The notes under the pieces are model-generated. The model had not been told where the DNA came from and searched no databases. It worked only from the letters and a program-made list of their open reading frames with translations. From a virus (lineage: Duplodnaviria; Caudoviricetes), in the IMG/VR virus record IMGVR_UViG_3300049485_000050, positions 1 through 57,072 of that record: DNA of 57,072 nucleotides; one strand, written 5' to 3'. Position numbers and translations under genes: made by a program. Shown here piece by piece: positions 5,367 to 35,402 of the stretch (positions within the stretch are counted from its first letter, which is position 1; each line of letters starts with the position of its first letter).

Positions 5367-6248
5367 TTAACCAAGGACTAATTTTGCGTCCTCCCACCCC
5401 TGGTAGCGTAGCCGTTTCGCAATTGACGGGCTGAACTCTAAGGAGTTTACGTCCAAGTCAGTTAGCGGGTGGATGATATTTAATTTTATTTCACGTTTGC
5501 CGGATAGGCCTGCACGTACAAGCTCGTTTATTTCTTGCGTACGTTCCACGTCCAGCCACGTAAGCCGGTTTATCATCAAATCAATGTTGTATAGGAGATC
5601 CGTTATAACGGAGCTGGGCCGTTTTGGATACGTCAGTGATGTGGGGTAACCTATGACAACATCAATGGAAGTGGCTCCTGCATCAATTGCCGCTTTGATC
5701 GGGGTAACTGTCTGTACGCCCCCATCAACACCTAACCCGTCTATGAGCGCCACCGGTTCAAAAAAGGGAGCTAACGCAGAAGACGCTTTAATGACTGAAC
5801 GTAGATCAGGGTCACGCTCCGTGTAGACTTTGTAGTTGCTAAAGCTGCGAGTGCCAACGTGCACTGGATTATACAATGTGACGCCTATACGTAAGCGTTT
5901 TCCCGAATCTTGTATTTTAAACGGGTCAATATGCGTATCAACCAGTGAACGCAATGGTTTGCTATTATAGAGACTACGTTTATTTAATAATGCTTGAAAA
6001 ATACCCCATGGGCGCCATTTGACGTAAATATCGGACGTATCTAGTTCCGAAAATAATGCCCACAGGCGGCTGATAGCTGATTCCTCTTGCCCCTTCGGGT
6101 ATTGCGCTAAATAAGCGCCGAGCAACGCGCCTACGCTTGTACCGCAAATTATGTCATGCCGTACTTTTTTTTGATTGTACAAGTACTGTATTACACCGAG
6201 GTGATAATAACCACGGGAACCCCCGCTGCTTAATACAAGAGCGTGCAT
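5367..6248 (-). CDS. Patatin-like phospholipase
   Basis: Oxyanion loop LSSGGSRG, nucleophile elbow GTSVG, ASSA..P.F and catalytic DGG motifs. Confidence 0.9.
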   Translation of the reverse strand: MHALVLSSGGSRGYYHLGVIQYLYNQKKVRHDIICGTSVGALLGAYLAQYPKGQEESAISRLWALFSELDTSDIYVKWRPWGIFQALLNKRSLYNSKPLRSLVDTHIDPFKIQDSGKRLRIGVTLYNPVHVGTRSFSNYKVYTERDPDLRSVIKASSALAPFFEPVALIDGLGVDGGVQTVTPIKAAIDAGATSIDVVIGYPTSLTYPKRPSSVITDLLYNIDLMINRLTWLDVERTQEINELVRAGLSGKREIKLNIIHPLTDLDVNSLEFSPSIAKRLRYQGWEDAKLVLG

Positions 6249-7994: not shown

Positions 7995-8828
7995 TTAGTA
8001 CATCACCGGTACAGTCTCTCTATTGACCGTAAGTCGGTGCTCGATAGAATCTTTACTGAGCTCACTAATAACGAGGGCTTGGTGTACTATCTCTCGACGT
8101 AATTCCGTCTGTGATTGCTGTTGTACCAAGTATCGCTGGTTAGCGTGCTTGGTGACGAGTAGGTCACCAGGGTCGATGTTTGGGTATGCAAGGCAAATGA
8201 CACGTACTTTTGTTGTGTCGGTCCAACCTTGTGGCGACATCTGCGTATCTGAGTTTGGTGCGAGGAAACGTACCTTCATTTGCACGGGTGCCGCGAAACC
8301 GCCATCGAAACCCACGCCGTAGCAGCTCTCGCATTTACTGGCTGTGACCTTTTTAGTTAACAAATCGAAGCATTTCTTACAACGAATGCCCCAGTGCAAG
8401 CGTTTAAGCAGGTACGTAGGTACTCCGTTGAATTTAAGTGAAACGCCGAGGTCGCGCTGCATTTTACGGTGTAGCCGCGCTAACCTGGGTGGTAGATCTG
8501 TCCCTACGTCTGATACGGCAGTAGCTGTTTCACCGGTACTGGCAGTGGCAGATACGCGGTAATAAATGGTACGAACCAACGATAGGAAATTAACGTTTTC
8601 GCGAGTATCTCCGGTGCTAGCGGCGGGAGTATCTCTATACTGGTCAAAAAAGTAATAAGACACTACATGGTCACGAACAAGCTCAAACGGTCCTTCGGGA
8701 CTTACAGAGCGTTCAATTTTAAATTCAATAGTTGCAGAGGGTGGGCTGCTGATATCCCATTGTACAAAGACGCCCGTATCTAGCGGTGAGCGATAAATCG
8801 GGGTCATATCCGTGATTTTGATTTGCAT
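7995..8828 (-). CDS. Probable neck/head-closure protein with Fn3-like N-terminus and CxxC...CxxC
   Basis: VQW...FKIERS...GPF...YYRVSAT Fn3-like pattern; RCKKC...KCESCYGVGFDGGF; YPNIDPGDLLV; synteny. Confidence 0.55.
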   Translation of the reverse strand: MQIKITDMTPIYRSPLDTGVFVQWDISSPPSATIEFKIERSVSPEGPFELVRDHVVSYYFFDQYRDTPAASTGDTRENVNFLSLVRTIYYRVSATASTGETATAVSDVGTDLPPRLARLHRKMQRDLGVSLKFNGVPTYLLKRLHWGIRCKKCFDLLTKKVTASKCESCYGVGFDGGFAAPVQMKVRFLAPNSDTQMSPQGWTDTTKVRVICLAYPNIDPGDLLVTKHANQRYLVQQQSQTELRREIVHQALVISELSKDSIEHRLTVNRETVPVMY

Positions 8829-10243
8829 TATACGCCCGGACTTGACGCTACCGAGTTTGCGCTAGGGTCAAGCGTAGATGTATCCATAGGTAAATCATTA
8901 AAACGAAATGCTTTATTGATTTTATCGGTAGGCGCCATCGGATCACCCTCTACTTTGCGCAACCCAACAAGACTCCCACCCGGAAAGCCTAGATAATCAC
9001 CAGGGGTTTGGTCGTTGAAAGACCCTGGCGATTTATCGATCAGCGTGGACCCGATATCGAAGCCAACCTTTTTAGGTCCGCCATTCACTGTCTTTAGGAC
9101 TTTCTCCTTAAAATCCTCGAAAGGCATAGCGCTCATTTTTCTAAAGAATCGCGCGTCCGAGTAATGGTCGAGGAAACCTTGTTTAGCCGTCTCGGCATTT
9201 TTAAAGCCAAGCATGCATTTCTCTTCGTCGATCTGTTTGAAGTCTGGAGGTTTATTCGTAGTAACTACGTAGACCGTATCCGCGTCTTCGTTGGGACCTA
9301 CAAAACAATCAACGTGATCGCCGTCTAGGCCTTCTGTCTTACGAATATACCCGTATGGATATTTCATCAATGTCTTGCCGTGGGTGTCGTTGTGTTTATC
9401 GTACCATTCGCGGTAGTTTCCTTTATCAGTCTCGATAGAAATATCGAGGCCTTGGAAAGTAGTACGCCCGTCGAGTTTTCTAGCTGATGTTTTCAAATAA
9501 GCCGACAGACCTGTCACGGCAGGAGATACGAGATATGTAGATTGGGGCTTCGTCAAAGTTTTGATGTATTGCGCTAATTCTTCTTCTGAAGCACCCGCTT
9601 GCTGTAGTAGTTTGTAGCCTTTGTAGTCCGCGACGCCTTCGCTTAACAAGGTAGGCGCAGCGAGGCCCAACGCGAGTACAAGAGACTTCAATGCGCGTTC
9701 GGTACCTTTGCTACCCATAAGAGGACCCGCTACTAAACCGATAAACGGTGCGATAGTATGTATACCGCGAGCTATTTGGCTTTGGGCAAGGCGACCCAGT
9801 GTGCTCTCATCGAATTGCGCGTGTCCAATTTCGTGGGCGAGAATGTGAATATTCGGATCATTATCGGAGATACCGATATGCATATTGTCACTATCGCCCT
9901 GATAATGTCCGTAGTATCCGCCGCCAGTCTCATTTGCATAAGCCGCCGAGTGTACAGGTACCGGGCTGAGCTTTTTTAAATCCTCAATCGTGACAGCGAC
10001 CTTGCTCTGCCACGCGCCTGTCGGTATTTGGCGTGTTTCGTTCCAACCATCGATCTGACGCTGCTTTTCGTTCTGGTTAAACGCATTGCTTACTTGCGCT
10101 TTGGGATTGTCCAGCGTACGAAAATGCGCACGCCCCTCGTCCCCATTAGACGATGAAATACGCGAATACAACGCATCACCCATTTGCGGCTCAGTCGCAA
10201 ACTTGTAACGCATCGGCATATTAACGTATTGCTGTAAGGTCAT
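8828..10243 (-). CDS. Modular protein: HExxH metallopeptidase-like domain plus inorganic-pyrophosphatase-like (InPase) domain
   Basis: ILAHEIGHA plus downstream LLSEGVAD with two hydrophobic helices; then GLDISIET...YGYIRKTEGLDGDHVDCFVGP...DEEKCMLGF, the signature of the phage InPase-like domain. Confidence 0.75.
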   Translation of the reverse strand: MTLQQYVNMPMRYKFATEPQMGDALYSRISSSNGDEGRAHFRTLDNPKAQVSNAFNQNEKQRQIDGWNETRQIPTGAWQSKVAVTIEDLKKLSPVPVHSAAYANETGGGYYGHYQGDSDNMHIGISDNDPNIHILAHEIGHAQFDESTLGRLAQSQIARGIHTIAPFIGLVAGPLMGSKGTERALKSLVLALGLAAPTLLSEGVADYKGYKLLQQAGASEEELAQYIKTLTKPQSTYLVSPAVTGLSAYLKTSARKLDGRTTFQGLDISIETDKGNYREWYDKHNDTHGKTLMKYPYGYIRKTEGLDGDHVDCFVGPNEDADTVYVVTTNKPPDFKQIDEEKCMLGFKNAETAKQGFLDHYSDARFFRKMSAMPFEDFKEKVLKTVNGGPKKVGFDIGSTLIDKSPGSFNDQTPGDYLGFPGGSLVGLRKVEGDPMAPTDKINKAFRFNDLPMDTSTLDPSANSVASSPGV

Positions 10244-12522: not shown

Positions 12523-13452
12523 TCAGGGAATGTCGACGCGGCACATCGCAGCCGTATTGCCGATGCCGATGCCGGGAGCCGCGTAGCTATGGAAGAAGAT
12601 CATATCCGCTTCCTGCTTGATGAACAAGGTGGCATCCTGCAAGAGGAAGAAGTTTCCGAGGAAGTTCTCAGGTGCAAACATGAAGATCGAGTGCGTTCCG
12701 CCACCCTGCGCGGTGAGAATATCCGTTTTGATCGTGGTTACGACCGGAATTCCGTAGAGGCGCTCTTCTTTCTCGATGCCGTCGCGGTAATGCGCCGAGG
12801 CAATGTCATTGCCAACATCGGTTGCCGGCAAGTCGAGAGCTTCGTAGTAGGTGCTCTTGGTCATGAGCACCTTGCCGATGGGCAAGCGCCGACTCACGAG
12901 GTTCTGGAAACCACCCTTGAACGCACTGGAGTTGAAACCCGTTGCGGCAACAACCTGCGCGGGTGCCGCTGCAAGAATCGAATTGACGGTGCCCAGGAAC
13001 TTGGTGTCTTCCTGATCTGCCATGTCCTTAACGGAGTTATCCGAAAGGATCTTTCGGATATCGTTCTGGTAGGTCATGAGCTCGAACTTGCTCTTGCGGA
13101 AGCGAGCCGACTCAGTCTTACCGAAGCGCACTGCGTAACGGGGGCCGCGGAAAAGCGTACGCGTGCCGGTACCGTAGAAGGGCACGAACGTCGCAACAGA
13201 GTCAGGCTCCTTCTCGACGATCTTCTTCGGCTGATCAGTATCCTCATCACGGTCGATCTCATCGTCCGCAAGGAGAATTGGCGGCAACACTTCGCGCACG
13301 AACGCCTCTTGGCGCATCTTGGTGCGGATGAAGGCAGAGCCTTCCTCTGTTGCCTCTTTAACGCGGCCCTGTTCCAGCTTGCGAACGAAGTTCGAGTTAA
13401 TGAACTGTGCGGAGACCTTTTCTGTCTCTGTACGATATGATGCGTTAGCCAT
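12523..13452 (-). CDS. Probable major capsid protein
   Basis: 309 aa at the end of a protease-scaffold-decoration run; strong GGAG RBS; codon usage looks biased; HK97-like layout (IRTKMRQEAFVREVLPP...DMADQEDTKFL...LYGIPVVTT...GIGIGN). Confidence 0.7.
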   Translation of the reverse strand: MANASYRTETEKVSAQFINSNFVRKLEQGRVKEATEEGSAFIRTKMRQEAFVREVLPPILLADDEIDRDEDTDQPKKIVEKEPDSVATFVPFYGTGTRTLFRGPRYAVRFGKTESARFRKSKFELMTYQNDIRKILSDNSVKDMADQEDTKFLGTVNSILAAAPAQVVAATGFNSSAFKGGFQNLVSRRLPIGKVLMTKSTYYEALDLPATDVGNDIASAHYRDGIEKEERLYGIPVVTTIKTDILTAQGGGTHSIFMFAPENFLGNFFLLQDATLFIKQEADMIFFHSYAAPGIGIGNTAAMCRVDIP

Positions 13453-23882: not shown

Positions 23883-25136
23883 TTACGCGTTCAGGTTCTG
23901 GAGACGTGTGCGCAGTACAGATAGCGATCCCATCTTGGATTCCGAGGACTCTTCTTTCTTCTGCATGAAAGCAGGAAGTGAAGGGCCTTTATCGTTTGCC
24001 TTGCCATCCCGCTTTGCGTTCTCTGAAGTAGCGCACTCAGCTTCGGCGGTCTTACGGAAGTGATCGCGGATTGAAGCAGCCGCTTCCTTCTTTGAACCCA
24101 TCGAAGAGTAAAGCGTTTCCAGATACTCCGCACGCTCTGGGACATCGAGACCCATCATAGCGCGCACGTGCGCAACCTTCTGTGTCTCAGGCATGCGCTC
24201 GGGAAGATACGGCACGACCTGCTCGGCCGTCTGCGTGAATACTCGATCAAAAGCATTTTTGGTCTGCTCGGTGATCGAATTACTACCACCGTCCGTGGCG
24301 CCCGGCATAAGCGGATGCGGCATTTCGCGACCGACAACTGCGCCAGACGGAATAGTCATTTCTGTGTTTCCGACACCGCGCTCGCCCATGCTGGCGTACC
24401 CTTCGGGACGGCGATTGAGCTCTTGTGCTGCTTCAGCGTTGTCAGCAGCAGCCGATGGCAAGTCGTTCGGATTACCGCCACCTGTGATTAGCGAGCCCGT
24501 ATCTGCTGCTTGCTTTCGCGAAACACGACGAACGATATCTGTAAACGAACCAGACTTTGCGGTCTGCTCAGTTACGGAATTTGAACCGCCATCGGTTGCT
24601 CCCGGTGCGACAGGGGAGCGTTGTTCGGTACCGACAGTGCCTTCGCCTTTGCCTTCCCAGTTACCGACGCCGCGTTCACCGAGATTCGCGTAGTTCTCGG
24701 GGCGGCGCTGCGCTTCAAGCGCAGCTTCAGCGTTGTCTGCGGCTGCACCGGGCATGTCATTCGGATCGCCGCCACCTTGATAAAGCGAACCGGTCTCAGC
24801 TGCGGATTTCTCCATGAGCGACCAAGCGTCACCTTGCGCGACTGCGACGGGGGTAGCGTCTTGAGCCGTTTTAGTAACGGACGGGCTATACTGATTTCCC
24901 GCTTGCTCGCACTGATATTCAGCCGCTTTGACGAGATTTTCGCAGAGAAAACCCGCGACCTTCATGTCGAGTTGGTCGCCATTCAGGTAAGGGTCAGGCA
25001 TTCCCGACTTATCAGCGATGTAATCCGCTGAAGCATCCGCCGCTTCCTTCGACGGGTAGACCACGACACCTTCGCGGATTAATTGCGCGTTCAGGCCCCG
25101 GACGAAGGCGCGCTTGAAAAGCGGTGAAATCGACAT
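23883..25136 (-). CDS. Probable internal head protein with two ~85-aa repeats
   Basis: AGGAG RBS; duplicated K.AA.TGSL..GGG.PND.P.AAADNAEAA...RRPE.YA..GERGVGN...PGATDGGSNS.TEQT. Confidence 0.65.
   Translation of the reverse strand: MSISPLFKRAFVRGLNAQLIREGVVVYPSKEAADASADYIADKSGMPDPYLNGDQLDMKVAGFLCENLVKAAEYQCEQAGNQYSPSVTKTAQDATPVAVAQGDAWSLMEKSAAETGSLYQGGGDPNDMPGAAADNAEAALEAQRRPENYANLGERGVGNWEGKGEGTVGTEQRSPVAPGATDGGSNSVTEQTAKSGSFTDIVRRVSRKQAADTGSLITGGGNPNDLPSAAADNAEAAQELNRRPEGYASMGERGVGNTEMTIPSGAVVGREMPHPLMPGATDGGSNSITEQTKNAFDRVFTQTAEQVVPYLPERMPETQKVAHVRAMMGLDVPERAEYLETLYSSMGSKKEAAASIRDHFRKTAEAECATSENAKRDGKANDKGPSLPAFMQKKEESSESKMGSLSVLRTRLQNLNA
24252..24809 (-). repeat. Intragenic tandem duplication (about 24558-24809 and 24261-24515)
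   Basis: Two protein-level repeats, also visible in DNA (e.g. GCTTCAGCGTTGTC occurs twice). Confidence 0.85.
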
Positions 25137-25211: not shown

Positions 25212-27023
25212 TTAGTACTGGCCATCTTGGCCTTCACCGAATTCAGAACTAAAGATGATGCCCGGTACGGGGCTGAGACTGTGAATGTCTGCGGTTTGCC
25301 CCTTCTGGGCCGCATCCAATATAGACTGTTTCAAGTAACGGTGCCCCAAACGTACAAGCCAGTCGGGGTTTAGTAAAGGATTTCTCGTAGCGGGTTGCAG
25401 GATTGGCGAAACAATCGGGGCTTTAAAACCTGTCTGGATCTTTGAGTAGCCCGCTTCCTTTAGTTCGTCGATCATAGGCTGCGAGATACGCGTGCCGATG
25501 AGATGGTGCAGCGCCCCCTCTGCGAGATACTTGCCCTCAGAGGAATCGATAGGTGTGTGCACAGATTTACTGCCGGCTATGTTACGCAACTTGTTGTATT
25601 CAATTACATCACCGCGTACTAAACCGTGTTCTGCGGAGTCCTCGTCATCTACGTCCTCTATGCGCACGTGATTGAGCGTAGATTTAGCGAGTACTTCAAA
25701 GTGACGGCGATCTACGTGCACGCCACTGCCTTGGTAAATATCGCTTAATTTATTTACGATGTAGTTACGTCCAGCACCGAGCCCCTTGTGCTCTACGACT
25801 TCACCAGGCTTCGGCACACCCTCGGATAGTGCATCGCCTGCATGCACTTTATCTCCAACTTTGACGATGGGTTTGAGCCCGGACATTACGTAAACGCGAT
25901 CAGTATTTACAGTAACAAAGTAACCGCCCTGAGGAGCCGTTACGATTTCTTTTACGGTGCCAGTAACCGGTGCGAGAGTCGCCTTGTTTTTGAAAGACGC
26001 AGGTGATTCGATAATCATGCGGAAACCTTCGAGGCCTCCGATATCTAGCGGGTTAGAGCCTGACATGCGTACGCCGTGCTTTGCGTTGAGCGCAAGCTGC
26101 GTGAGGGGCTCGCCTAGTGCCTGGCTAGCACGAATACCTACGTTCTCACCGACAGGATTGAGCTTGCCTGAAGTATTTAAACCCATGCATTTCTGACAAA
26201 CGCCGCGAGCTGCTTCGCATGTCATAGGTGAACGGACGATGATGTACTCTATCTTTGCCTTTTGAAGCAATGATACGATACGAGGGGCAATCAGCGTGTT
26301 TCGTGTAAATTCTCCAACGGCAACAGCTAGGAACCGATCTATAATGGCAGAGTTAGCGACTGCCATACGTAGACCATTTTTGGTCCCACAGTCAGGCATA
26401 GTAATAACTTGATCGTTCGTATTATTGACGAGAATTTTCGAGAGATCGCCAGGTTCGCTAACTTCAATGGTCCCCTTAGCTGCGGCCATGCGCGCTTCTT
26501 TGTTATTCGCCCACCACTCTGAAGGACGCAAGCCTTCTGAGTAACTGTGCGTAGTCAGCCATGCTTGAACATTATCATGCTCGTCGTTACTTGCAGCAGG
26601 AGCGCCAACCGCGCGCATTAATTGGAGTGGACTTCCACGAGACCCCGACCGTGCCATCTCGCCCATGGTTCCTGGGTGGTTCATGGCGTATGCAAGCAAC
26701 TTATCCTGCGTGTCCCGGATAATTACGTGCTTTTGTGCGTCGGTCGTACTTGCTTTGATTTTAGCTAATGCGGGTCGCGTAATTGCATTGCGTTCTTTGT
26801 ACAGCGGTGCAATGTCGTCGAGGCCTACAGAGATACCCATGCTCGTAGAAAAATCATCTCCGAGTTTCTTCACTTTGGTGATGGTTTTTACGTACTGAAC
26901 GGGGTCATCTTTAGCGAGCCTCAGCATATTCTGAAACAGGTCTTTTTTTGTGTAAATGCCCTTAGGACGATATTCGCTGGGAATAGCGCCATCCAACAAA
27001 TAATGTCCTAGGGTTTTTGGCAT
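25212..27023 (-). CDS. rpoC: Phage RNA polymerase beta' subunit, C-terminal half
   Basis: GISVGLDDI, MARSGSRGS, SYSEGL, bridge-helix region to DCGT, VRSPMTC..GVCQKCMG, trigger loop GENVGIRASQALGEPLTQLALNAKH, VDRRHFEV. Confidence 0.92.
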   Translation of the reverse strand: MPKTLGHYLLDGAIPSEYRPKGIYTKKDLFQNMLRLAKDDPVQYVKTITKVKKLGDDFSTSMGISVGLDDIAPLYKERNAITRPALAKIKASTTDAQKHVIIRDTQDKLLAYAMNHPGTMGEMARSGSRGSPLQLMRAVGAPAASNDEHDNVQAWLTTHSYSEGLRPSEWWANNKEARMAAAKGTIEVSEPGDLSKILVNNTNDQVITMPDCGTKNGLRMAVANSAIIDRFLAVAVGEFTRNTLIAPRIVSLLQKAKIEYIIVRSPMTCEAARGVCQKCMGLNTSGKLNPVGENVGIRASQALGEPLTQLALNAKHGVRMSGSNPLDIGGLEGFRMIIESPASFKNKATLAPVTGTVKEIVTAPQGGYFVTVNTDRVYVMSGLKPIVKVGDKVHAGDALSEGVPKPGEVVEHKGLGAGRNYIVNKLSDIYQGSGVHVDRRHFEVLAKSTLNHVRIEDVDDEDSAEHGLVRGDVIEYNKLRNIAGSKSVHTPIDSSEGKYLAEGALHHLIGTRISQPMIDELKEAGYSKIQTGFKAPIVSPILQPATRNPLLNPDWLVRLGHRYLKQSILDAAQKGQTADIHSLSPVPGIIFSSEFGEGQDGQY

Positions 27024-27281
27024 TTAAACGCCCCCGGCGCGCGGCAAGCCCATCTGGTAATTACGAGTTCCCGCATCGCCTGATTCCAGCGAATTCTGGC
27101 CGCTCCACGCGGGAGTCTTGTCGACGTTCTTCGCAATGGCCGGAGGGTTTGCCGCACCATTCGGATTTTCACTATCTACATCTGTTTGATCTTGCTCTGC
27201 GAATTCAGCGAAAGTATCCGCAGACATGCCTAGTTTTATTAGAGCCTGTCGGGCGCCATACGTGTAATAAGTATTCGGCAT
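27024..27281 (-). CDS. Small probable internal head protein
   Basis: MPNTYYTYGARQALIKLGM shared N-terminal motif. Confidence 0.6.
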   Translation of the reverse strand: MPNTYYTYGARQALIKLGMSADTFAEFAEQDQTDVDSENPNGAANPPAIAKNVDKTPAWSGQNSLESGDAGTRNYQMGLPRAGGV

Positions 27282-27667
27282 TAGGGCTTATCCTTTCCCG
27301 TATATACCCGGTCTAAGTTGAGGCGAGCGTCTACGAGCACGCCTATGTAATCGCGGCTCTTCTCTGCTATTTTATTTTCCCTCAGCGTTCGTATTACAAA
27401 ATCAACCGCAATAGCGTGTTTATCTGCGCTCGTTATTGGCGGTTGTTTTAGTTTTAACGCCTTGCGACTTTGTTCCTGTGCATAGGCGATACCTTTCATA
27501 ATAGCGTCGTCGAGCAACGTAGTATGTTGCTCTGTTACTGTCACACCCGTACGCTTTGCAAATTCTCGTGTGAACTTATGTGCGAGCATAATAGCTATAG
27601 GTGTAATAATAATGACTAGCGTCTGTAGGATAAAGTCTAGGATCATTTTTGTAGATGTCGTATCCAT
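27281..27667 (-). CDS. Putative holin (LL-H-like)
   Basis: One N-terminal TM helix, then AIMKGIAYAQE...K..IAVDF...LVDARL, a pattern like LL-H family holins; AAGGA RBS. Confidence 0.5.
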   Translation of the reverse strand: MDTTSTKMILDFILQTLVIIITPIAIMLAHKFTREFAKRTGVTVTEQHTTLLDDAIMKGIAYAQEQSRKALKLKQPPITSADKHAIAVDFVIRTLRENKIAEKSRDYIGVLVDARLNLDRVYTGKDKP

Positions 27668-27682
27668 AAATTAATCCTTTAG

Positions 27683-27877
27683 TTAGTCTTGTAACGTGTA
27701 ATCATCGGAAACCAAACCGCCCGCGGGTAGTCCATTCATAGCTTGAATTTTCAAATCTTTTTGACGCTGCAACTCACGCCGACGAGCCATAAATGCCGGC
27801 AAATCTTCAGGGTCTAACGCATCCAAAAAGCCGAGTTTATGTAGAGCAGCGCGCTTACCTGCGGTATAACTAAACAC
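27683..27877 (-). CDS. Small probable internal head protein
   Basis: GTG 27877 after GAGGAG gives MFSYTAGKRAALHKLGF (shared motif). Confidence 0.6.
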   Translation of the reverse strand: MFSYTAGKRAALHKLGFLDALDPEDLPAFMARRRELQRQKDLKIQAMNGLPAGGLVSDDYTLQD

Positions 27878-30800
27878 TGTGCAACTCCTCAATTTCCACG
27901 GGTGTGGTCATTTTGATGTCACCGCGTTGATACGCTTGCATTGCTTCGGCTTTAGTTTTGAATTTGTGTACGGCACCGGCGTCGACTTTGGTCGCAAGAT
28001 ACGCACCTAAAATAGCCTCATGCTTAGGAAATACCATGAGATCTGCTGCATGCTTATCGCCAAATAGTAGTTTGGACATTGTGAGATTCTGAGCTTCTTG
28101 AACAGCCGCCGCAGTTACCGGGACGTGCAGCTGCATAGCATCTCCATCGTAGTCCAAGTTTTGTCCCGTCTCCATAAAGGGATTTACACGCAGCGACTTG
28201 CCTTGAACAGGCACGGGGTAGGCTGCGACAATATTGTGTCTGTGCAGAGACGGTGCACGATTTACAAACATCGGCCGGTAAGTAATTTCATGGTTTAGTA
28301 CTGAGTTAGCTGCGGGGTGTCGGTCTTCGACCATTTTTTTGGCGTCAAGCGGCCTGTAGCCTTGTCCGATAAGCCCGCGCATTATGAACTTATCATACGT
28401 AGTCCAAAGCATGTCTTCTGGTACACCGATTTGGTCTATGTCTAGCGTATTATCCGGCGTGGCTGTGGCGCGTCCTGTAAGGTCTTGCTGGCGTCGTAAT
28501 ACCTTCTTGTGCAGGAATCCCGTTTTCGGTGAGCCAGATCCCGTGATCTGTTCGATAAAGCCCTTTATTTCGCGATTAGCGCGGCCGGGCGTCGTAGCTT
28601 TTTGCGTACCGAAAAGAGAGCCTACAGCGTCATGCAGATATTTACGCGAGTCCGAGATGACACCCGGCATCTCAGTTTCTTTGCTGTTGTGTAGCGCGGC
28701 ACTGGCAAGACCGACGTCACGGTAAAGGTAATTGATGTCTGATATCTGCAAGTCATTACCGCGACTGGACTGCACAATAGGACGCATCATCGGAGGGATA
28801 ACCGGTATTTTAGAGATAACGTACGCGTCTCCGGCCTTGGAGAAACCGTTCTTTTTAAGCCCTTCGATATATTTGAGCTTCTTTACAACACCATCTAGAT
28901 CCGACCCGCGCTTAGTGCGCGTTTGTTCGCGTAGCTCTACCGCAAGCTGGTCGAGATCTAATTTATTCAATTGCTTGCGTATCCCTGCACCACCGGAAGT
29001 ACCGATTTCGTCCTTGAGTTGCTTCTTAGACATATTCAACAGACGCCGTACCGCGTCTTCAAATACCGGATTTACAATTGGTTCAGTCAAGTCGATATGC
29101 GACCACTTTTTGCCGCTCATACCGCCGGTCAAATTGGGGTCGAATAAACCCCCAGTCTCTGGAGCTAGGTTCTTGGCATTAACCATGAACGATTTAGACT
29201 TATCCAGGCTGGGCGTACTGAGCGCACCCGTAGATAAATTTGAGGTAGCACGATCCGTCAACGGACCAAGACTTACGTGCGCCCCCTCCTTATTAACATT
29301 GATGCCCGCACCTTGAAGCATCGCCATAAATTTCTCTGTGACGAATGGCGTTTTAGGCGGCGGAGCCGGTAGGCCAAATTCATACGCACGCCAGAAATCA
29401 TCGCTTTTCTCACTTTTCAAGGTCAATGCTTCTTTCAAAACATTGCGCGCGTTATGTGCGAGAAGTGCGTTAACTTCCATTCTGCCCAGACCTTTGGCGC
29501 CTTCATCGCCGCCTTTGGTAGGCTGCAAGTTGACGTCGTAGCCGGATACACCGCGGGCTGAGTAATTGGTCTCAGTTGACTTAAATAGTTTATGGATAAA
29601 CGAACGCCCCACAAAGACGTTCGGAATGTCTTTGCCAGAAACAGGGTCGTGGACTGTTTCTTTGTCCTTAACGCCGTGCTCTTTCATGAGGCGTTTAGCA
29701 AATTCAACATTGTTCTCATTTTGAAACTGCGGGACGACAATAGGCTTGCCGATCTTCTCCGCAACTTTGCCGAGGGCCGCTTCAACAACTTGGCCGGGAT
29801 TAATGCGGCTGACGATACCTGCTGACGTGAACAGCACGTCGATAGGTTTTTTATTTTCGTCCTGTATCATTCGGTTGTCTGGAATGATTTCAGAAACCAC
29901 GCCTTTGCCGCCAAACCGATTCGATAGCTTGTCGCCGATCTTCATCGGTTCTTGCGTTCGAATCGTGACCATGACTTGACGCGTGGCGTTCGTAACGTCT
30001 TGCACGGTGGCGGGTACGAGCTTGTCCCATGTAATCGTAACGTCTCGATATGGCTTGAGCAGCGATTTGTGAAATAGGCCGAGCATGGCTTGCTCTGGCG
30101 TGGGCGCTGCTTTGCGTAAGCCTAAGATGAGCGGATCCCCCTTGTTAAAGGTAGCGCCCTTTTTAGCTACGCCATTTTCATCTAGCTTATTGAGCTGCTC
30201 CGCGCTGAAACGCACACCGTAATACGCAACGTATTTGGGCTTATTTATAATAATATCCGGGCCCTTTTGCAGGACCTCTTTGTACATATGTTCGGAAGTC
30301 AGCTTGTGCGAGGCGCCTTCACTTATAACGACCGCGTCGTTTGAGTTCTTGCCGTAGTACGCCATGTACGCAATAGACAGATTTTTAACCAGCGCGGTCT
30401 CGCCACCTTTGGTAAAGTTGGACTCGCCGAGTAGCTGGTCCTGCTTTACCTTGTCGCCGACTTTGACGTTCAAAGTGTCATGCAAGTAGGTCTTCGCTGT
30501 TAGCGGGAAGTATGTATTGTACGGAACCTTGATTAACGCAGGTTCAGCCGCCGCAGTCTTTGCGTGAGGACGAATGTAAATGTAATCGTCATCTATCTTT
30601 TCGATAGTGCCGTCAACCGACGACGACGGGGCAATTACACGCGCAATAGTGCGCTCCATGCTCTCACCCTCAGGTCCGCCACCTGCTTGTACTAGAGGTG
30701 CTTCACGGTGTACGAGCGGCAAAGCTTGTGCCTGGAATTTAGATCCCATGATCGCGCGATTGCCCTGCATGCCGTCGAGGAAAGGCACGAGTGCCGTAGC

Positions 30801-32273
30801 CGGGCTGAACATATGCGTCAGATTCGGCATGACGTAATCTACGTCTTTTTTAGCAATTGAACGCGTGTGGTCGCCTTGTAATACGTCCCAGTGCGTGCGG
30901 TGATCTTGCCCTGGAAATGCAACGTTGCTTTTAGCAAGGTCCATAACGGATACGTCTTCGAGACGCCCGTTACGTGTGTTATGCATGCGCGCGTAGAGAT
31001 TGCCTTCAGAATCTTTGTGTGCTGTTAACGCGCTATGAATATCAATGCCTGTTTTAGGACCGTCAGGCGTATGTACGGGGTCGATGACGCCGAAATGTGA
31101 ATTATGGACTTTACGTGATTCGAAAGGAATTGCTCGATCACTGCTAATCCCGCCTTCGCCAAGGGATGTTATTTTACTGGCGTAATCTAGGATCTCTACC
31201 GGGTTGATTTGCGTTGGCTGAGACGACAACGCGGCACCCGTCAAGAAACTATTTATTGATTTTGTGAATACCGAATTAGGCACCATGGACTTAATGTCTG
31301 AGCCCGATTGGTTTAGCCGGCCTGCTATTTTCTTTGCAACAGTACGACGTGCCTCTACGTCGAGACGCTCTTTGAAAAAGTCGTCTGTAGAGTGCAGCGT
31401 CTTGAATTCCAAGCTGTCACGGTCATCGGTTTTAGCAGTGCCCTTGTGTACATCGATCAGTTTCTTGCTGGCCACTAGCAACGCCTGCGCGTCAGCCCGG
31501 CCTAGGGGCATACCTAGCGTACGGCTATTTACGGCAGAATCCATCGTAGTACTGTGGAAGTAATCGCGAACGAATGCGCGCTTACCTTCAAGCGACGTGG
31601 GAGCAACCTGGTTTGGCCGTCTTATCTTGCTGACGATCTTGTTGAGAATAACGTCTTCTTTTTTGGCGGATACGTTAGAATTCGCAGCGGTGAGCTCGTC
31701 ACCCCAGTACTGTTTGATTTCAGTATCTGATGTACCTAGGATTTTCAGAATAGCGTACAGCGGAAGCTTCGAGGTCTTCGCAGTACCGCCTACTTCCATA
31801 TTTAATCGGCCAGTCGAAGGCTCCATCGCTAACCGGAAATTCGAGCCTTTGCTCAAATTGAACGCGGCTTCGAACTCACCGTTGTTACGCTCGCGTGTAT
31901 AAACGCCCGACTTCAGCCGTAACTGGTTCGGGACGTTATACTCGTTGCCGCCCACGACGAACGTGTAACGACGGGTAAAGTACGGCAGGTGAACGAGGAT
32001 GCGCTTCTGCTCGTCAGTGAGCTGCCCCGTAGCGTTGTCCCGTAGTTTAATCGTGCCGCTAATAGCTTCGTTCAGCGTTCGGCCGCTCATGAGAGCGTCT
32101 TTCTGATCACTGTTCGAGAAGTCCTTGCGGCTCACGTCTAGTCCGTGAAGTTCCAGCGTTGACTTCTTGCCGATGATGGGAAACAGCGCCTTGAGACCCT
32201 CCATAGTCTTTTGGCGGATCTGCTCGCGACGCACGTCTGCGTCCACAACTATGGGTTGTAAATTCAAGGGCAT
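27870..32273 (-). CDS. rpoB: Phage RNA polymerase: beta subunit fused to the N-terminal half of beta'
   Basis: Beta motifs (FVVGGNEY..NQL, SLGEGG...VHNSHFGVIDPVHTPDG, NRAIMGS, GDKLSNRFGGKGVVS, SRINPGQ, GRMEVNAL) run without a stop into beta' motifs (GGLFD, IPVIPPMMRP, SDINYLY, NRAPSLH, catalytic NLDYDGD at 28140-28160). Confidence 0.95.
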   Translation of the reverse strand: MPLNLQPIVVDADVRREQIRQKTMEGLKALFPIIGKKSTLELHGLDVSRKDFSNSDQKDALMSGRTLNEAISGTIKLRDNATGQLTDEQKRILVHLPYFTRRYTFVVGGNEYNVPNQLRLKSGVYTRERNNGEFEAAFNLSKGSNFRLAMEPSTGRLNMEVGGTAKTSKLPLYAILKILGTSDTEIKQYWGDELTAANSNVSAKKEDVILNKIVSKIRRPNQVAPTSLEGKRAFVRDYFHSTTMDSAVNSRTLGMPLGRADAQALLVASKKLIDVHKGTAKTDDRDSLEFKTLHSTDDFFKERLDVEARRTVAKKIAGRLNQSGSDIKSMVPNSVFTKSINSFLTGAALSSQPTQINPVEILDYASKITSLGEGGISSDRAIPFESRKVHNSHFGVIDPVHTPDGPKTGIDIHSALTAHKDSEGNLYARMHNTRNGRLEDVSVMDLAKSNVAFPGQDHRTHWDVLQGDHTRSIAKKDVDYVMPNLTHMFSPATALVPFLDGMQGNRAIMGSKFQAQALPLVHREAPLVQAGGGPEGESMERTIARVIAPSSSVDGTIEKIDDDYIYIRPHAKTAAAEPALIKVPYNTYFPLTAKTYLHDTLNVKVGDKVKQDQLLGESNFTKGGETALVKNLSIAYMAYYGKNSNDAVVISEGASHKLTSEHMYKEVLQKGPDIIINKPKYVAYYGVRFSAEQLNKLDENGVAKKGATFNKGDPLILGLRKAAPTPEQAMLGLFHKSLLKPYRDVTITWDKLVPATVQDVTNATRQVMVTIRTQEPMKIGDKLSNRFGGKGVVSEIIPDNRMIQDENKKPIDVLFTSAGIVSRINPGQVVEAALGKVAEKIGKPIVVPQFQNENNVEFAKRLMKEHGVKDKETVHDPVSGKDIPNVFVGRSFIHKLFKSTETNYSARGVSGYDVNLQPTKGGDEGAKGLGRMEVNALLAHNARNVLKEALTLKSEKSDDFWRAYEFGLPAPPPKTPFVTEKFMAMLQGAGINVNKEGAHVSLGPLTDRATSNLSTGALSTPSLDKSKSFMVNAKNLAPETGGLFDPNLTGGMSGKKWSHIDLTEPIVNPVFEDAVRRLLNMSKKQLKDEIGTSGGAGIRKQLNKLDLDQLAVELREQTRTKRGSDLDGVVKKLKYIEGLKKNGFSKAGDAYVISKIPVIPPMMRPIVQSSRGNDLQISDINYLYRDVGLASAALHNSKETEMPGVISDSRKYLHDAVGSLFGTQKATTPGRANREIKGFIEQITGSGSPKTGFLHKKVLRRQQDLTGRATATPDNTLDIDQIGVPEDMLWTTYDKFIMRGLIGQGYRPLDAKKMVEDRHPAANSVLNHEITYRPMFVNRAPSLHRHNIVAAYPVPVQGKSLRVNPFMETGQNLDYDGDAMQLHVPVTAAAVQEAQNLTMSKLLFGDKHAADLMVFPKHEAILGAYLATKVDAGAVHKFKTKAEAMQAYQRGDIKMTTPVEIEELHSV

Positions 32274-32281
32274 GCCCTGCT

Positions 32282-32311
32282 ATTATACTCGGTTTTTTCA
32301 AAAAACCGCAA
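32282..32311 (-). promoter_or_regulatory. sigma70-type promoter of the RNAP gene, probably leaderless mRNA
   Basis: TTGCGG-18 nt-TATAAT with only 8 nt between the -10 box and the ATG. Confidence 0.55.
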
Positions 32312-32333
32312 CCCTTGCTGGTAAAAGAATGTA
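32290..32333 (+). promoter_or_regulatory. Candidate phage-specific promoter, copy 1
   Basis: Palindrome CGGTTTTTT-C-AAAAAACCG followed by GGTAAAAGAATGTA; same layout as at 39061-39103. Confidence 0.5.
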
Positions 32334-32371
32334 GAGACGTATTAAAGCCACGTTTCTTTTCAGGAGGAAAC

Positions 32372-33097
32372 TTGAGCAATAGTAGCAGATTGGATGGGGA
32401 TATCCGCGTACAGGACTTGGCAGGTCCTACGTTTGCGGGTATCGATCTGCAGACAGCCAGACTCATAGTCTGGGGGGTGCATTACTCAAATATCAGTAAA
32501 GTGCTCGCATACTTGCGAGCCCGCCGATTGGAGGTCAGCAAAGAAGAGTTGTACCGTTACGCTATGACGTACCGTGCACTTTTCCGAGTAGACGTAGCCC
32601 GAGACGTACAAGCCAGCTGTTGGCACTGCGGTGATGTTCTACCTCCGATGGAGGAAGAACTTTGCGAGTGTTACAACCGGGCCGTGCCTAAGGTCTACAT
32701 CGAGCCGACTCTCCTAGCGATCGAACAGGAAAAGTTATCTTTTCCAACTACATGGCATTTGCGCCTACAAAGTGTTTATATTTGCAGCAACGATGACTGT
32801 CGTCGGCTTAATGACGTGCCGTTAGGCGTTGTTGCATCAGATTTGCGAAAGGTGCAGTTGCGATACGAACAGCAACTCGCCCAATATAATGCCGCAGTAG
32901 CTAGCGGTAATCTACAAGTTGTGGCTCCGCGCGAGCCGACCTGGCGCCCGAAGACTAAGTGCCACGCGTGTTATCAGCAAGAGCTGAAGACCGGAAGGCG
33001 CTCAAGCGCTCCACCGCCACGTGTTAATATAAAACAACGCGAACAAAGTACGCTCGCGTCTTTAATACTGTCGATTCCGCCAACTGCCGAGAGCTGA
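32372..33097 (+). CDS. Cys-rich (zinc-binding) hypothetical protein, possible regulator
   Basis: Start re-assigned to TTG 32372 after AGGAGG; CWHC, CEC, CSNDDC and CHAC motifs. Confidence 0.6.
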   Translation: MSNSSRLDGDIRVQDLAGPTFAGIDLQTARLIVWGVHYSNISKVLAYLRARRLEVSKEELYRYAMTYRALFRVDVARDVQASCWHCGDVLPPMEEELCECYNRAVPKVYIEPTLLAIEQEKLSFPTTWHLRLQSVYICSNDDCRRLNDVPLGVVASDLRKVQLRYEQQLAQYNAAVASGNLQVVAPREPTWRPKTKCHACYQQELKTGRRSSAPPPRVNIKQREQSTLASLILSIPPTAES

Positions 33098-33148
33098 TAA
33101 TGCACGTACGCCCAGTCGTCCCTGTACCGCCTATTAAGCGGTAAGGGA

Positions 33149-33180
33149 TAACCTGCCCACGCAGGTGGGTGGGCGGGTTA
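33149..33180. terminator. GC-rich hairpin between convergent genes
   Basis: TAACCTGCCCAC...GTGGGCGGGTTA; a second hairpin TACCGC-7-GCGGTA lies at 33125-33143; no long U tract. Confidence 0.45.
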
Positions 33181-33675
33181 GTCGTCGTCAGTATCGTTTG
33201 GAAAGTCTTCGACGGTATCTGGGTCTTTATCGTCTGGATCTGTCGAGGGCGTAAGAAGCTCACTCGTTGTTAAAAACGGGTGATCTTTTTTAGATCCTGC
33301 CTTCGGCTGCATCCACTCAAGCCAGATAACGACGGTGCCGTCTTTGAGGAAAGTCTCTGTCTTCTTCACTACGACGACCTCTCCGGAGAGAGATCTGTCC
33401 ATAATGTCTTTGAGCCGGTCCGACTCGTCGATATCTTCAAATATCGCAGTGCCATGATCCATGGCAGTCATTTCTTTACCGATAGTCAAGCGTGCTGACT
33501 GATATTCAAATGAATACTCAGTAGCGTTGGCGACCTTGCCTGCCGTACCCGGTGCGATTGATTTAACGAGACTTTCAAACTCAGAGCCTCTAAGTAAATC
33601 AGGCACGGCTTTTTCGTTACTGGCTATATCCGGTAACGTCTGCGCGAACTGCAGCGCTTTGATAAAATCATCCAT
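33178..33675 (-). CDS. Hypothetical protein downstream of the portal
   Basis: Start overlaps the portal stop; acidic tail. Confidence 0.65.
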   Translation of the reverse strand: MDDFIKALQFAQTLPDIASNEKAVPDLLRGSEFESLVKSIAPGTAGKVANATEYSFEYQSARLTIGKEMTAMDHGTAIFEDIDESDRLKDIMDRSLSGEVVVVKKTETFLKDGTVVIWLEWMQPKAGSKKDHPFLTTSELLTPSTDPDDKDPDTVEDFPNDTDDD

Positions 33676-35402
33676 TAAGCGGCTCCGCTGCTAAAGTCTG
33701 CTAGTGCTTGTTGTTTCTCTACAGCTTTCTGAGTAGACCAGCGGTCTTTTACAACAGCGTACATAACAGGGTCTTCTTGAGATAGTTGTGCGAGCATAGA
33801 CTTTTGAGTGCTGGGGTCTGCAGCACCCATTTGTTGTACCATTTGTTCCGCGGCGGAAATAATAGCTTGCGGATTGTAAGAAAGTCCTGATCCGGACTGG
33901 GACTCATTTTGAGCTTGTTGCGATAGCGAGTTTTGTATTTTGTTCATCTTCTTGGCGAGCTCCATTTGCATGCGAGCTTCATCAAGAGATTCTTGTAGGC
34001 GTTTTTCGCGTTCTTCGTTTATGTCAGCATCATTGAGATCGAGCATCGTGGTGTTCGAAATCATGCCGCCTGTTGCTTGTTGCAGGCCTAGCAAGAATTG
34101 CTTTTGCACGGCGTCGTCAACGAGCTTAAACGGTAAGTACTCTGCTTCTACAAATTTCCAGCTTAGAATTTTACTGGATTGTTTTATTATCCATTCCAAT
34201 TGCTCATTGAGGTGTGACGTGTACGTTTCGAGCTGATTCTCTAACATGCGCAGCGTTATAGATGAGCCTGAAAATGATAGTCCGCCGTAAATGAATTCCT
34301 TGGGAATTCCCATTGCCGCAATAATCTCTTCTTCTGCTTCTTTGATTTCACCTAGCGTAAGTAACGAACGGCCTTGGCCACCCATCATGGTCACGCCTAG
34401 GGCCGCAGGTGCGAACATAATGTGCAGAGGGTCGCGCCGCCAGCGTTTGATATTGGCGGTCATTTCTTGACGCCACTTCATCAAGTTGACCATCTGCGCT
34501 GGATCGGCTGCACCACTGATCGGTGCTGGATGCAGTACGCGAAACGGTAGTATATGCTCGAACGCTATAGCCTCGTTCGCTTTACGCAGAATAGCCGTGT
34601 AGAGAAAAAGCTTGATCGTCGTTGTTAGAGGTGGAAATCCCCACTGTGATGAGATACCCGCGGGCGGGTGAATCTTCATGTGGTAAACGGCACCATCCGC
34701 GAATTCGAATAATTTATCATCACGAATCGCCTTGAGAAACTCGATAGGCATCGTGTTAATAATGTGAGCATCGCCTTTCTCGACTTTGCTCTTTAGTTCC
34801 TGCGGAATAGTGTAGTAGTATACGGATTCATTTGTGATAGGGTTGTGGTTGATATCCATCAACTTCGGGTCCCAACGAATCACGTTAATGCGATGCTCGT
34901 CACTTGCTTTTTCATCGAGAATATCGCCCGTAGTAGTGGTATTGCAAGCAGGGCAGGTATATGAGAATGCCAAATTTTTCAGGTTGAATTTATACGTTGT
35001 CTTCTTGATTCCAGTTCGGGCATTGCATTCTTTGCAAATAAGGAAACGATTAAACGGATGGTATACGGACGTAAACGAATTTCCGTAAAGATGCAAATCC
35101 AGCCCGGACGCAATAGCGACACCTTTTATTCGTATAGACTTATTTAGTACACGTTCCCAATTTTTAGTTAATGCTTCGTCGCTGGACTGGATCATCACTT
35201 TAGTGACGGGGTACTCGGCGAATTTCTTTAGCGCTGCAAAAATATGCGCTGAATTGTAGTACAGATATTCGACCCAGCGAAACAAGTCTTTCAGCTTACG
35301 TGGAGCGAAGCCTGTTACGAAATCGAACATCGGATTGGGATGGCTGCCTCGACCGCGAGAACCCCCAGCGAGATCTAAAATTCCTGGATCACTTGTCGAC
35401 AT
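33675..35402 (-). CDS. Probable portal protein
   Basis: 575 aa; portal-like layout (KFAEYP, DLHLYGNSF, WGFPPL, EEEIIAAMGIPKEFIYGG, ISNTTML) and coiled-coil C-terminus; CxxC...CxxC insert. Confidence 0.7.
   Translation of the reverse strand: MSTSDPGILDLAGGSRGRGSHPNPMFDFVTGFAPRKLKDLFRWVEYLYYNSAHIFAALKKFAEYPVTKVMIQSSDEALTKNWERVLNKSIRIKGVAIASGLDLHLYGNSFTSVYHPFNRFLICKECNARTGIKKTTYKFNLKNLAFSYTCPACNTTTTGDILDEKASDEHRINVIRWDPKLMDINHNPITNESVYYYTIPQELKSKVEKGDAHIINTMPIEFLKAIRDDKLFEFADGAVYHMKIHPPAGISSQWGFPPLTTTIKLFLYTAILRKANEAIAFEHILPFRVLHPAPISGAADPAQMVNLMKWRQEMTANIKRWRRDPLHIMFAPAALGVTMMGGQGRSLLTLGEIKEAEEEIIAAMGIPKEFIYGGLSFSGSSITLRMLENQLETYTSHLNEQLEWIIKQSSKILSWKFVEAEYLPFKLVDDAVQKQFLLGLQQATGGMISNTTMLDLNDADINEEREKRLQESLDEARMQMELAKKMNKIQNSLSQQAQNESQSGSGLSYNPQAIISAAEQMVQQMGAADPSTQKSMLAQLSQEDPVMYAVVKDRWSTQKAVEKQQALADFSSGAA

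Follow-up and report, generated by a model that had tools for sequence, protein, structure and literature searches.

The stretch of DNA analysed here (hereafter the window; 57,072 nucleotides, the whole of IMG/VR record IMGVR_UViG_3300049485_000050) is a fragment of an uncultured ~160-200-kb tailed phage related to Salmonella phage Arash, and on its minus strand two genes encode the parts of a multisubunit RNA polymerase of the bacterial type. The longer gene (chain 1) joins a complete β subunit to the N-terminal half of β′, while the shorter one (chain 2) carries the C-terminal half of β′, and the two are separated by three small genes. Both polymerase genes sit in the block of head genes, with the portal gene on one side and the capsid gene on the other. 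In what follows we describe the two chains, the spread of the fusion and its single-chain relatives, and then weigh how such an enzyme might be assembled, directed and delivered.

Two chains and the elements they carry

Chain 1 was matched by the Pfam families Rpb2_3 (residues 355-418, 43.2 bits) and Rpb2_6, the β double-psi barrel with its flap (residues 613-921, 136.2 bits against a cut-off of 23.4, E 2e-39), and further along by Rpb1_1 (residues 1117-1245, 44.7 bits) and Rpb1_2 (residues 1322-1399, 71.6 bits). Since Rpb2 and Rpb1 families match within a single open reading frame (ORF), both double-psi barrels lie on one chain. In a phmmer search of the PDB, residues 23-996 aligned with residues 30-1059 of a cyanobacterial β subunit (E 3.9e-73) and residues 1091-1461 with residues 169-539 of Bacillus subtilis β′, the β′ subunits of several phyla being matched as well, and chain 1 is 36% identical to gp206 of phage Arash over 98% of the query. 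Aligned with Salmonella β by MAFFT, the β part lacks three enterobacterial stretches (Salmonella residues 230-367, 938-1049 and 1126-1156) and ends at about residue 998, or base ~29280. The β′ part starts directly after it, without a linker, from about Salmonella residue 20. Opposite the four-Cys stretch of Salmonella β′ there is a gap of 32 columns in all seven aligned phage sequences, so that the zinc ribbon is missing. In a set of 122 proteins (the two chains of the window plus 120 listed homologues) the catalytic motif NLDYDGD was found in 88, followed by NMDYDGD (10), NADYDGD (9), NLDFDGD (6) and NADFDGD (1), with no such motif in the remaining 8.

An AlphaFold2 model of residues 960-1467, built from a 27-sequence alignment, contained the clamp coiled coil and the barrel (predicted local distance difference test score, pLDDT, 78.1; predicted template modelling score, pTM, 0.57), and a Foldseek search with this model returned β′ and γ chains as the top matches (E ~1e-27, template modelling (TM) scores 0.46-0.53). 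Against the rpoC equivalog model TIGR02386 the N-terminal half of β′ scored 207.5 bits and chain 2 186.9 bits, both below the cut-off of 963.5. Among PHROG families the β and β′ parts matched those built like whole β and whole β′ (E 6e-75 and 2.3e-51, respectively), whereas the phiKZ-type subunits matched only at E 1e-17 or weaker.

Chain 2 takes up β′ near Salmonella residue 573. It is matched by Pfam Rpb1_5 (residues 164-324, 75.6 bits), its residues 48-461 align with β′ 644-1090 in the PDB search (E 2.1e-39), and it is 29% identical to Arash gp216. In the alignment with Salmonella β′ the bridge-helix region falls at chain 2 residues 170-204, each of the four Cys in the second zinc site has a Cys aligned with it, and both helices of the trigger loop are kept while the large enterobacterial insert is missing. 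The NCBIfam model rpoC2_cyan also matched, with chain 2 residues 122-316 corresponding to profile positions 123-333, and the C-terminal tail of chain 2 is conserved throughout the family. As judged from these alignments, chains 1 and 2 jointly hold every catalytic element of the bacterial core enzyme.

Much of this had been anticipated by a preliminary description made from the sequence of the window, which placed both double-psi barrels and the NLDYDGD motif in the 1467-residue ORF, set the junction at 29260-29320, read the N-terminal zinc-binding domain of β′ as deleted, and assigned the bridge helix, trigger loop and second zinc site to the 603-residue ORF. All of these assignments are borne out by the domain matches and alignments given above. 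The same description had seen two motif-bearing small genes and a holin-like gene between the chains; the two motif genes stand, but the 128-residue product of the third is without a Pfam or PHROG match, and beyond its hydrophobic helix there is no support for calling it holin-like.

The slot between the polymerase genes is never empty in related loci (gaps of loci L013-L092), and its length varies from 552 to 5735 bp. It is filled with small genes whose N-terminal motifs are of two types, Y..G..AAL.KLG and MPFKS.AQRR, and the family to which the 69- and 85-residue products belong occurs in 46 of 61 related gaps. The slot motif could be a head-targeting signal. A variable gap filled with small motif-bearing genes suggests that gene insertion was the cause of the split between the two chains.

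Table 1. Features of the window, with the polymerase and the genes between its two parts listed first.
Feature	Position	Strand	Remarks
Window	1-57,072		whole IMG/VR record; 32% complete (CheckV)
Chain 1, 1467 residues	27870-32273	-	complete β (residues 1-~998) plus N-terminal half of β′ (~999-1467)
β part	29280-32273	-	aligns with Salmonella β 22-1342 end to end (MAFFT)
N-terminal half of β′	27873-29279	-	clamp, clamp helices and catalytic double-psi barrel; ends at ~Salmonella β′ 540
Site of lost β′ zinc ribbon	29088-29153	-	residues 1041-1062
Clamp helices (coiled coil)	28608-28742	-	model helices 220-241 and 244-262, pLDDT about 88-93
Catalytic motif NLDYDGD	28140-28160	-	residues 1372-1378; three Asp kept
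Small ORF, 69 residues	27683-27892	-	N-terminal motif; same family as the 85-residue ORF
Small ORF, 128 residues	27281-27667	-	one N-terminal hydrophobic helix (by eye); family in 15 loci
Small ORF, 85 residues	27024-27281	-	N-terminal motif
Chain 2, 603 residues	25212-27023	-	C-terminal half of β′ plus family-specific C-terminal tail
σ70-family factor, 227 residues	40725-41408	-	regions 2 and 4; ~8.5 kb upstream of the polymerase
Portal protein	33675-35402	-	33% identity to Arash gp204 (tblastn); conserved upstream neighbour of the polymerase
417-residue protein	23883-25136	-	internal repeat of ~100 residues; directly after chain 2
1146-residue protein	minus-strand block		N-terminus resembles Arash gp218 (tblastn)
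Prohead-protease-like protein	minus-strand head/tail block
Major capsid protein	12523-13452	-	42% identity to Arash gp226; no Pfam match
471-residue protein of virion block	8828-10243	-	InPase domain PF18823, 117.4 bits
Patatin-like phospholipase	5367-6248	-	PF01734, 108 bits; within tail/structural block
Tail-region homologues of Arash	minus-strand block		found by tblastn
SNF2 helicase, two PD-(D/E)XK nucleases, ParB, primase		+
Family-A DNA polymerase, 1445 residues	46502-50839	+	uracil-DNA-glycosylase-superfamily domain 31-169; intein 742-1132 interrupts the polymerase domain
Large terminase	51537-53204	-	beyond the plus-strand genes; PF03237, 32.6 bits (cut-off 22)

Spread of the fusion and its single-chain relatives

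A word-indexed search with residues 900-1467 of chain 1 scored 7998 proteins, of which 788 reached E<=0.001. Those of the 788 that were listed (120) are 50-98% identical over that region, nearly all carry both Rpb2 and Rpb1 domains, and most are 1459-2133 residues long, the three shorter ones coming from contigs of 3.5-5.2 kb. In IMG/VR, relatives of the fusion are encoded by 369 stretches, 80 of which were kept for all counts of split-type loci given here. The gene order in these loci is σ, portal, fusion, gap and C-terminal half of β′: the portal gene was found in 77, the β′ half in 61 and the σ gene in 37, with a single exception the portal lies upstream of the fusion, and the portal-polymerase order inside the head module is kept over 40-99% identity. 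Representative genomes of 185,579 prokaryote species yielded only two loci, both on contigs of 130-170 kb from metagenome-assembled genomes, and these are most likely mis-binned phage. Cultured relatives that share the layout are Salmonella phage Arash and the Vibrio phages D69, D148 and D181.

The preliminary description had named a stop or frameshift at the junction beforehand as an observation that would speak against a fused gene, and none was seen. The junction is open in a single frame in all 79 related loci that hold it (both motifs are present in 72, variants of them in four, and three are cut by contig ends; the eightieth locus stops short of the junction), and Logan contigs from four of four sequencing runs bridge base 29280 without an insertion or deletion. 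One of these runs, from freshwater sediment and possibly the source sample, holds 99% of the sampled words of 25212-32273; the other three (from three further studies, on freshwater sediment, freshwater and sediment) hold relatives that diverge by ~5-9% over the junction-bridging pieces. With the layout also common to two cultured phage lineages, the chance that the fusion is an artefact, whether by a frameshift, a misassembly or a missed stop joining two genes, appears negligible. As far as sequence can tell, the fusion is real, conserved and functional-looking, and kept under selection over hundreds of phages.

The polymerases of a sister group have neither the cut nor the gap. Among 7995 proteins scored with chain 2, 290 longer homologues were found at E<=1e-20, and the 120 listed include 103 single chains of ~2000-2100 residues (longer with inteins) in which no more than a few residues separate a chain-1-like part (33-38% identity) from the chain-2-like part (29-34%) that comes after it. 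These single chains share the deletion of the zinc ribbon (consensus of 12) and the C-terminal tail, and their catalytic motif is mostly NADFDGD (74 of the 120 listed). IMG/VR contains at least 427 single-chain stretches; 80 loci were kept, of which 67 have a portal homologue, and in 76 of the 78 loci with both parts these are read in one frame with no stop. An exhaustive search with the N-terminal half of β′ returned 1293 representatives at E<=1e-30, and by their coordinates the best 150 of the 1293 comprised 57 of the window type, 51 that are single-chain or intein-bearing, and a rest made up mostly of fragments. Fourteen rows that appear to carry the N-terminal half of β′ alone may be fragments. 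An apparent class of unfused whole β′ (7 of the 150 rows) was rejected, as the three members checked carry the end of β in front and are probably N-truncated single chains, and the faecal 'Bacteriophage sp.' MT836236, considered as another case of the same layout, was also rejected because its β and β′ lie in separate frames.

In a quick IQ-TREE analysis of the β′ N-terminal region (LG+C20; 50 rows, with two cellular sequences as the root) the phage enzymes formed one clade with a Shimodaira-Hasegawa-like approximate likelihood ratio (SH-aLRT) of 100, with the 21 single-chain rows at its base. The window, Arash and D69 are among the 23 split rows, all of which fall in one cluster of 25 rows nested among the single-chain rows, the other two members of the cluster being a fragment and a long-branched single-chain row. 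The latter, P0365 (2015 residues), may have been re-fused, joined during assembly or misplaced. Given the collinear single-chain kin and the nested position in the tree, the best reading of the partition is that a single-chain phage polymerase was cut, probably on one occasion. This departs from the preliminary description, which had taken the two chains for a re-partitioned bacterial enzyme; the collinear homologues and the tree point instead to the splitting of a phage β-β′ chain that was already joined.

Subunits and the proposed specificity and delivery of the enzyme

As the preliminary description had noted, no α or ω gene is present in the window: a six-frame search gave no match to the Pfam α families PF01000 and PF01193 or to the ω family PF01192 at E<=1. 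The same holds for near-complete relatives, in which PF01000 exceeded its cut-off in none of 26 genomes and PF01193 in none of 13, and PF01192 was found in none of 26. A PF01000 score of 13.4 bits in one relative (G016) is below the cut-off, and one of 14.2 bits for PF01193 in another (G001) was dismissed as chance, for the 126-residue ORF behind it has a hydrophobic N-terminus and overlaps with another frame. Rpb2_6 and Rpb1_2 were each found at a single locus in all 13 near-complete split-type relatives, and the two share a frame of 1449-1621 residues. A single β barrel and a single β′ barrel per genome indicate one enzyme, and no phiKZ-like pair of virion and non-virion polymerases. To extrapolate from these relatives, the polymerase of the window is probably the only multisubunit RNA polymerase of its phage.

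The window does encode a σ factor, which the preliminary description had overlooked. It was detected with both Pfam and NCBIfam (Sigma70_r2, 45.9 bits against a cut-off of 24; Sigma70_r4, 35.5 against 24.1; the σ70 superfamily model TIGR02937, 77.7 against 42.9), and it is 41% identical to Arash gp196. A canonical σ factor with Pfam region 2 occurs in all 11 near-complete split-type uncultivated viral genomes (UViGs) searched, above the cut-off in nine, and also in Arash and D69. A second, divergent σ-like protein related to Gp10 of Arash was found in 24 of 25 near-complete genomes (all 12 of the split type and 12 of the 13 with a single chain); the window does not extend to the region of this gene. 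Of four Gp10-type proteins tested two were matched by Sigma70_r3 above the cut-off, and many sub-threshold σ matches were seen.

The clamp helices of β′ are the usual docking site of σ region 2, and in holoenzymes the surfaces of σ region 2.2 and the clamp helices touch. Both surfaces are altered in the phage proteins. Ahead of the conserved G-N of region 2.2 the aligned solved cellular SigA chains have Q-E, whereas the σ factor of the window has A-A, and 23 phage σ factors have A or S followed by A, N or Q. Three solved β′ subunits and that of Salmonella have an identical first clamp helix, but the phage version has lost most of its basic residues while keeping the fold: Ala stands in place of Salmonella R275 in 19 of 27 family members, and R278 and R281 are not kept either. 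If the two surfaces do touch in the phage enzyme, the loss of Q-E together with that of the basic clamp face is consistent with a co-adapted pair of σ and core. A complex prediction of the window σ with the N-terminal half of β′ scored 0.00 (mark 0.32), which we counted neither for nor against such a pair.

From ~35.4 kb down to base 1 the minus strand is a head and tail block that is collinear with Arash by tblastn, which locates the polymerase genes within the virion module; this collinearity and the position between portal and capsid agree with the preliminary description, in which the genes were embedded in a virion gene block. For Arash, the available part of the published report lists spectra from virion preparations in which Gp206 has 3516 (most of any protein) and Gp216 1210, compared with 467 for Gp10 and 1333 for the major capsid protein (PMC10585845). 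By analogy, the polymerase of the window would be packaged in the virion.

Taken together, we consider it likely that the window encodes a two-chain phage polymerase that is free of α and ω, directed by σ, packed in the virion and split from a single-chain ancestor. On this reading the two chains would assemble into the usual crab-claw, with the covalent β-β′ link and tightened interfaces replacing the α dimer and ω. In cellular enzymes the C-terminus of β and the N-terminus of β′ lie together, so a covalent link between them may help assembly. Promoters would be chosen by the σ70-family proteins of the phage, one canonical as in the window and one divergent of the Gp10 type that is clade-wide and found in Arash virions. 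The enzyme would be packed in the head, enter the cell with the DNA and transcribe the early genes, and as the sole polymerase set it would be expected to transcribe the later genes too.

Several observations weigh against this account, and three alternatives have to be set beside it. The window is a fragment, and its having only one polymerase therefore rests on relatives. Host α or ω could be recruited, or a very divergent phage α could have been missed by Pfam. That the enzyme borrows a host α dimer, and perhaps ω, for its assembly would fit with the need of all cellular multisubunit polymerases for an α-type platform, according to the part of the review available (PMC7598289), and with the β and β′ parts being far closer in PHROG to cellular enzymes than to phiKZ-type subunits. 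Yet transcription from the virion would then require α in the particle, near-complete relatives have no α gene, and the jumbo-phage enzymes covered in that same part of the review function without α (PMC7598289). We regard such borrowing as unlikely. Of the earlier proposal that the enzyme is possibly α-independent, the want of a phage α gene above the cut-off in near-complete relatives stands, but use of host α would still be compatible with it. Presence in virions is known from one relative at 29-36% identity, in which, as far as the available text of the report goes, virion-associated status was given to 116 proteins, ribonucleotide reductases and ligases among them, and carry-over of abundant proteins is allowed for by the authors (PMC10585845). 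The polymerase might thus be merely encoded among late genes, the Arash spectra reflecting contamination by an abundant protein. However, Gp206 tops those spectra above the major capsid protein, the portal-polymerase order in the head module is conserved across the family, and, with a single set per genome, a phage dependent on it would have to have it when infection begins, unless the early transcripts are made by host polymerase; an unpackaged enzyme strikes us as improbable.

The evidence on the role of σ pulls in both directions. The phage σ factors might redirect the host polymerase, as in T4 and SPO1, while the phage enzyme, like those of phiKZ and AR9, relies on a specificity factor of another kind or on no such factor. 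The unconserved basic residues of the clamp helices fit an absence of σ docking equally well, and the canonical σ is detectable in 3 of 13 single-chain genomes at E<=0.01 (two above the cut-off) and missing in the other 10, so it is not a universal partner of the polymerase family. In most models the Gp10-type protein lies under the curated σ cut-offs, and consensus σ70 promoters are not enriched between 23000 and 42500 (19 against 21.0 +/- 4.5 in shuffled sequences). The available portions of two reviews also state that large phages which encode σ without a polymerase of their own probably use it with the host enzyme (PMC7824862, PMC13282480). Against a purely host-directed role stand the Gp10-type protein, which accompanies the polymerase in 24 of 25 genomes and is present with both chains in the Arash virion preparations (in the accessible part of that report), the loss of Q-E in region 2.2, which argues against a good fit to the host core, and the clamp coiled coil itself, which is retained in the AlphaFold2 model. 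On balance we think it rather doubtful that σ serves the host enzyme alone. Finally, where the origin of the partition is concerned, the split cluster has an SH-aLRT of 89, is not a starred branch and includes one single-chain row, in a quick tree with two cellular outgroups.

A bolder form of the preferred reading, that of a σ-directed two-chain enzyme packed in the virion, can be put forward only tentatively, and we give it somewhat less than even credence. It holds that the family is a self-contained, insulated machine, with a core of one or two chains free of α and ω and σ factors of its own, all carried in the virion, and that the interface of σ region 2.2 and the clamp has been rewritten on both sides (Q-E to A-A, and Arg to Ala) so that the phage parts fit each other and not the host. 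If true, this would make it the smallest known σ-dependent holoenzyme of the bacterial type, and a natural case of a whole β-β′ chain cut by gene insertion. With ~2070 residues in two chains or ~2050 in one, and no α, ω or zinc ribbon, the compact bacterial-type enzyme has its attractions for structural studies as well as for orthogonal expression systems. The cultured members (Arash on Salmonella and the D69 type on Vibrio) allow direct tests of α-free assembly, σ-core specificity and protein injection, and the pair of single-chain and split forms provides a dated natural experiment on the cutting and joining of polymerase genes.

Gene neighbourhood and comparison with known systems

The gene that directly follows chain 2 encodes a protein with homologues at the same place in 47 of 80 loci. 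No similarity between it and Gp217 of Arash was detected, though the position of the gene is equivalent; Gp217 is annotated 'DNA helicase' and has 1148 virion spectra in the available part of the Arash report (PMC10585845). An InPase domain like that of the 471-residue virion-block protein is inserted in the β part of the fusion, between Rpb2_3 and Rpb2_6, in three relatives (P0044, P0112 and P0120), which suggests that pyrophosphate removal and the packaged polymerase are functionally linked. Just as an intein interrupts the family-A DNA polymerase gene of the window, inteins and homing endonucleases are found within the polymerase genes of relatives. Between a gene for a 165-residue product and the start of the fusion lie ~900 bases (32274-33177) with no minus-strand ORF above 46 residues except an apparently spurious one of 119 (32107-32466) that overlaps the fusion at its start. 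This stretch contains a strong terminator-like hairpin on the minus strand (33060-33036) and, on the plus strand, a Cys-rich ORF of 260 residues (32315-33097) without a Pfam match, for which tblastn matches were found in 9 of 80 loci. An Rfam scan of the whole window and a megablast search of the polymerase locus against the phage collection gave no match.

A phage's own multisubunit RNA polymerase is of a known kind, and the layout described here is present in public genomes, but as far as we could find it is undescribed in print: literature searches returned no published description of either the fusion layout or the single-chain family. The Arash paper, in its available part, names the two proteins β and β′, and a fusion is not mentioned there (PMC10585845). 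For the mReC clade the accessible text gives as entry rules matches to β and β′ of at least 800 residues each and the motif NADxDGD, and fusion is likewise not mentioned in that text (PMC7481178). Further marks of the clade are a capsid protein matching PF07068 (only 8 capsid proteins in 97 contigs) and a terminase matching PF03237. With NLDYDGD and a β′ C-terminal chain of 603 residues the window is outside the entry rules, while the single-chain NADFDGD relatives may overlap the mReC clade, as far as that part of the paper describes it (PMC7481178). Reviews up to 2026, in the portions available, keep large phages that bear a polymerase without σ apart from those that bear σ without a polymerase (PMC7824862, PMC13282480), a division which the present family breaks.

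Arash and the Vibrio phages D69, D148 and D181 have the same partition into two chains, the same order of portal, fusion, gap and β′ C-terminal half, and the same loss of the zinc ribbon, and in the Arash type there is likewise a canonical σ nearby (gp196), a Gp10-type protein and no α. The proteins are of similar size (1525 and 606 residues for Gp206 and Gp216 of Arash, 1467 and 603 in the window), but identities of only 32-36% (chain 1) and 29-30% (chain 2) set the Arash/D69 type apart from the window. Nine genes lie between the polymerase genes of Arash compared with three in the window, and the catalytic motif begins with Ala in Arash and D69 in place of the NLDYDGD of the window. The single-chain polymerases of uncultured phages of ~160-200 kb are collinear with chain 1 plus chain 2 and also lack α and ω above the cut-off; they differ in being one chain, in the mostly NADFDGD motif and in having a canonical σ in only 3 of 13 genomes.

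In cyanobacteria and plastids, rpoC1 and rpoC2 are cut in the same stretch after the catalytic barrel, and chain 2 is in register with rpoC2 from near its start; the end of chain 1 corresponds to position ~550-560 of cyanobacterial γ, which has ~620 residues. However, γ is not fused to β, and the cyanobacterial enzyme has α, ω and the zinc ribbon. Since ~29 residues are missing at the cut relative to Salmonella, and this is so in the single-chain kin too, the phage cut looks independent of the cyanobacterial one. Cellular rpoBC fusions (NCBIfam PRK09603 and PRK14844) join the C-terminus of β to the N-terminus of β′ in the same way, yet they are ~2840-2890 residues long, contain the whole of β′ and work with α and ω. 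The scores of the window against their models (131.8 against a cut-off of 5372, and 122.2 against 4632) fall far short and only half of β′ is in the phage fusion, in agreement with the preliminary description, which had held the partition to differ from the full cellular fusion.

For phiKZ and AR9 the available part of the review describes enzymes without α and ω, a β′ cut after the barrel at the cyanobacterial site, and packaging of one form in the virion (PMC7598289). The window resembles this type in having a two-barrel phage enzyme, no α or ω genes, and β′ split after the catalytic barrel. As far as that part of the source covers them, the phiKZ and AR9 enzymes have β and β′ in 4-5 chains (β alone in two or three), two enzyme sets, and no σ recognizable by sequence. 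The polymerase of the window, in contrast, has β whole and fused to the N-terminal half of β′, occurs (to go by its relatives) as one set, is accompanied by σ genes, and is far closer to the cellular enzymes.

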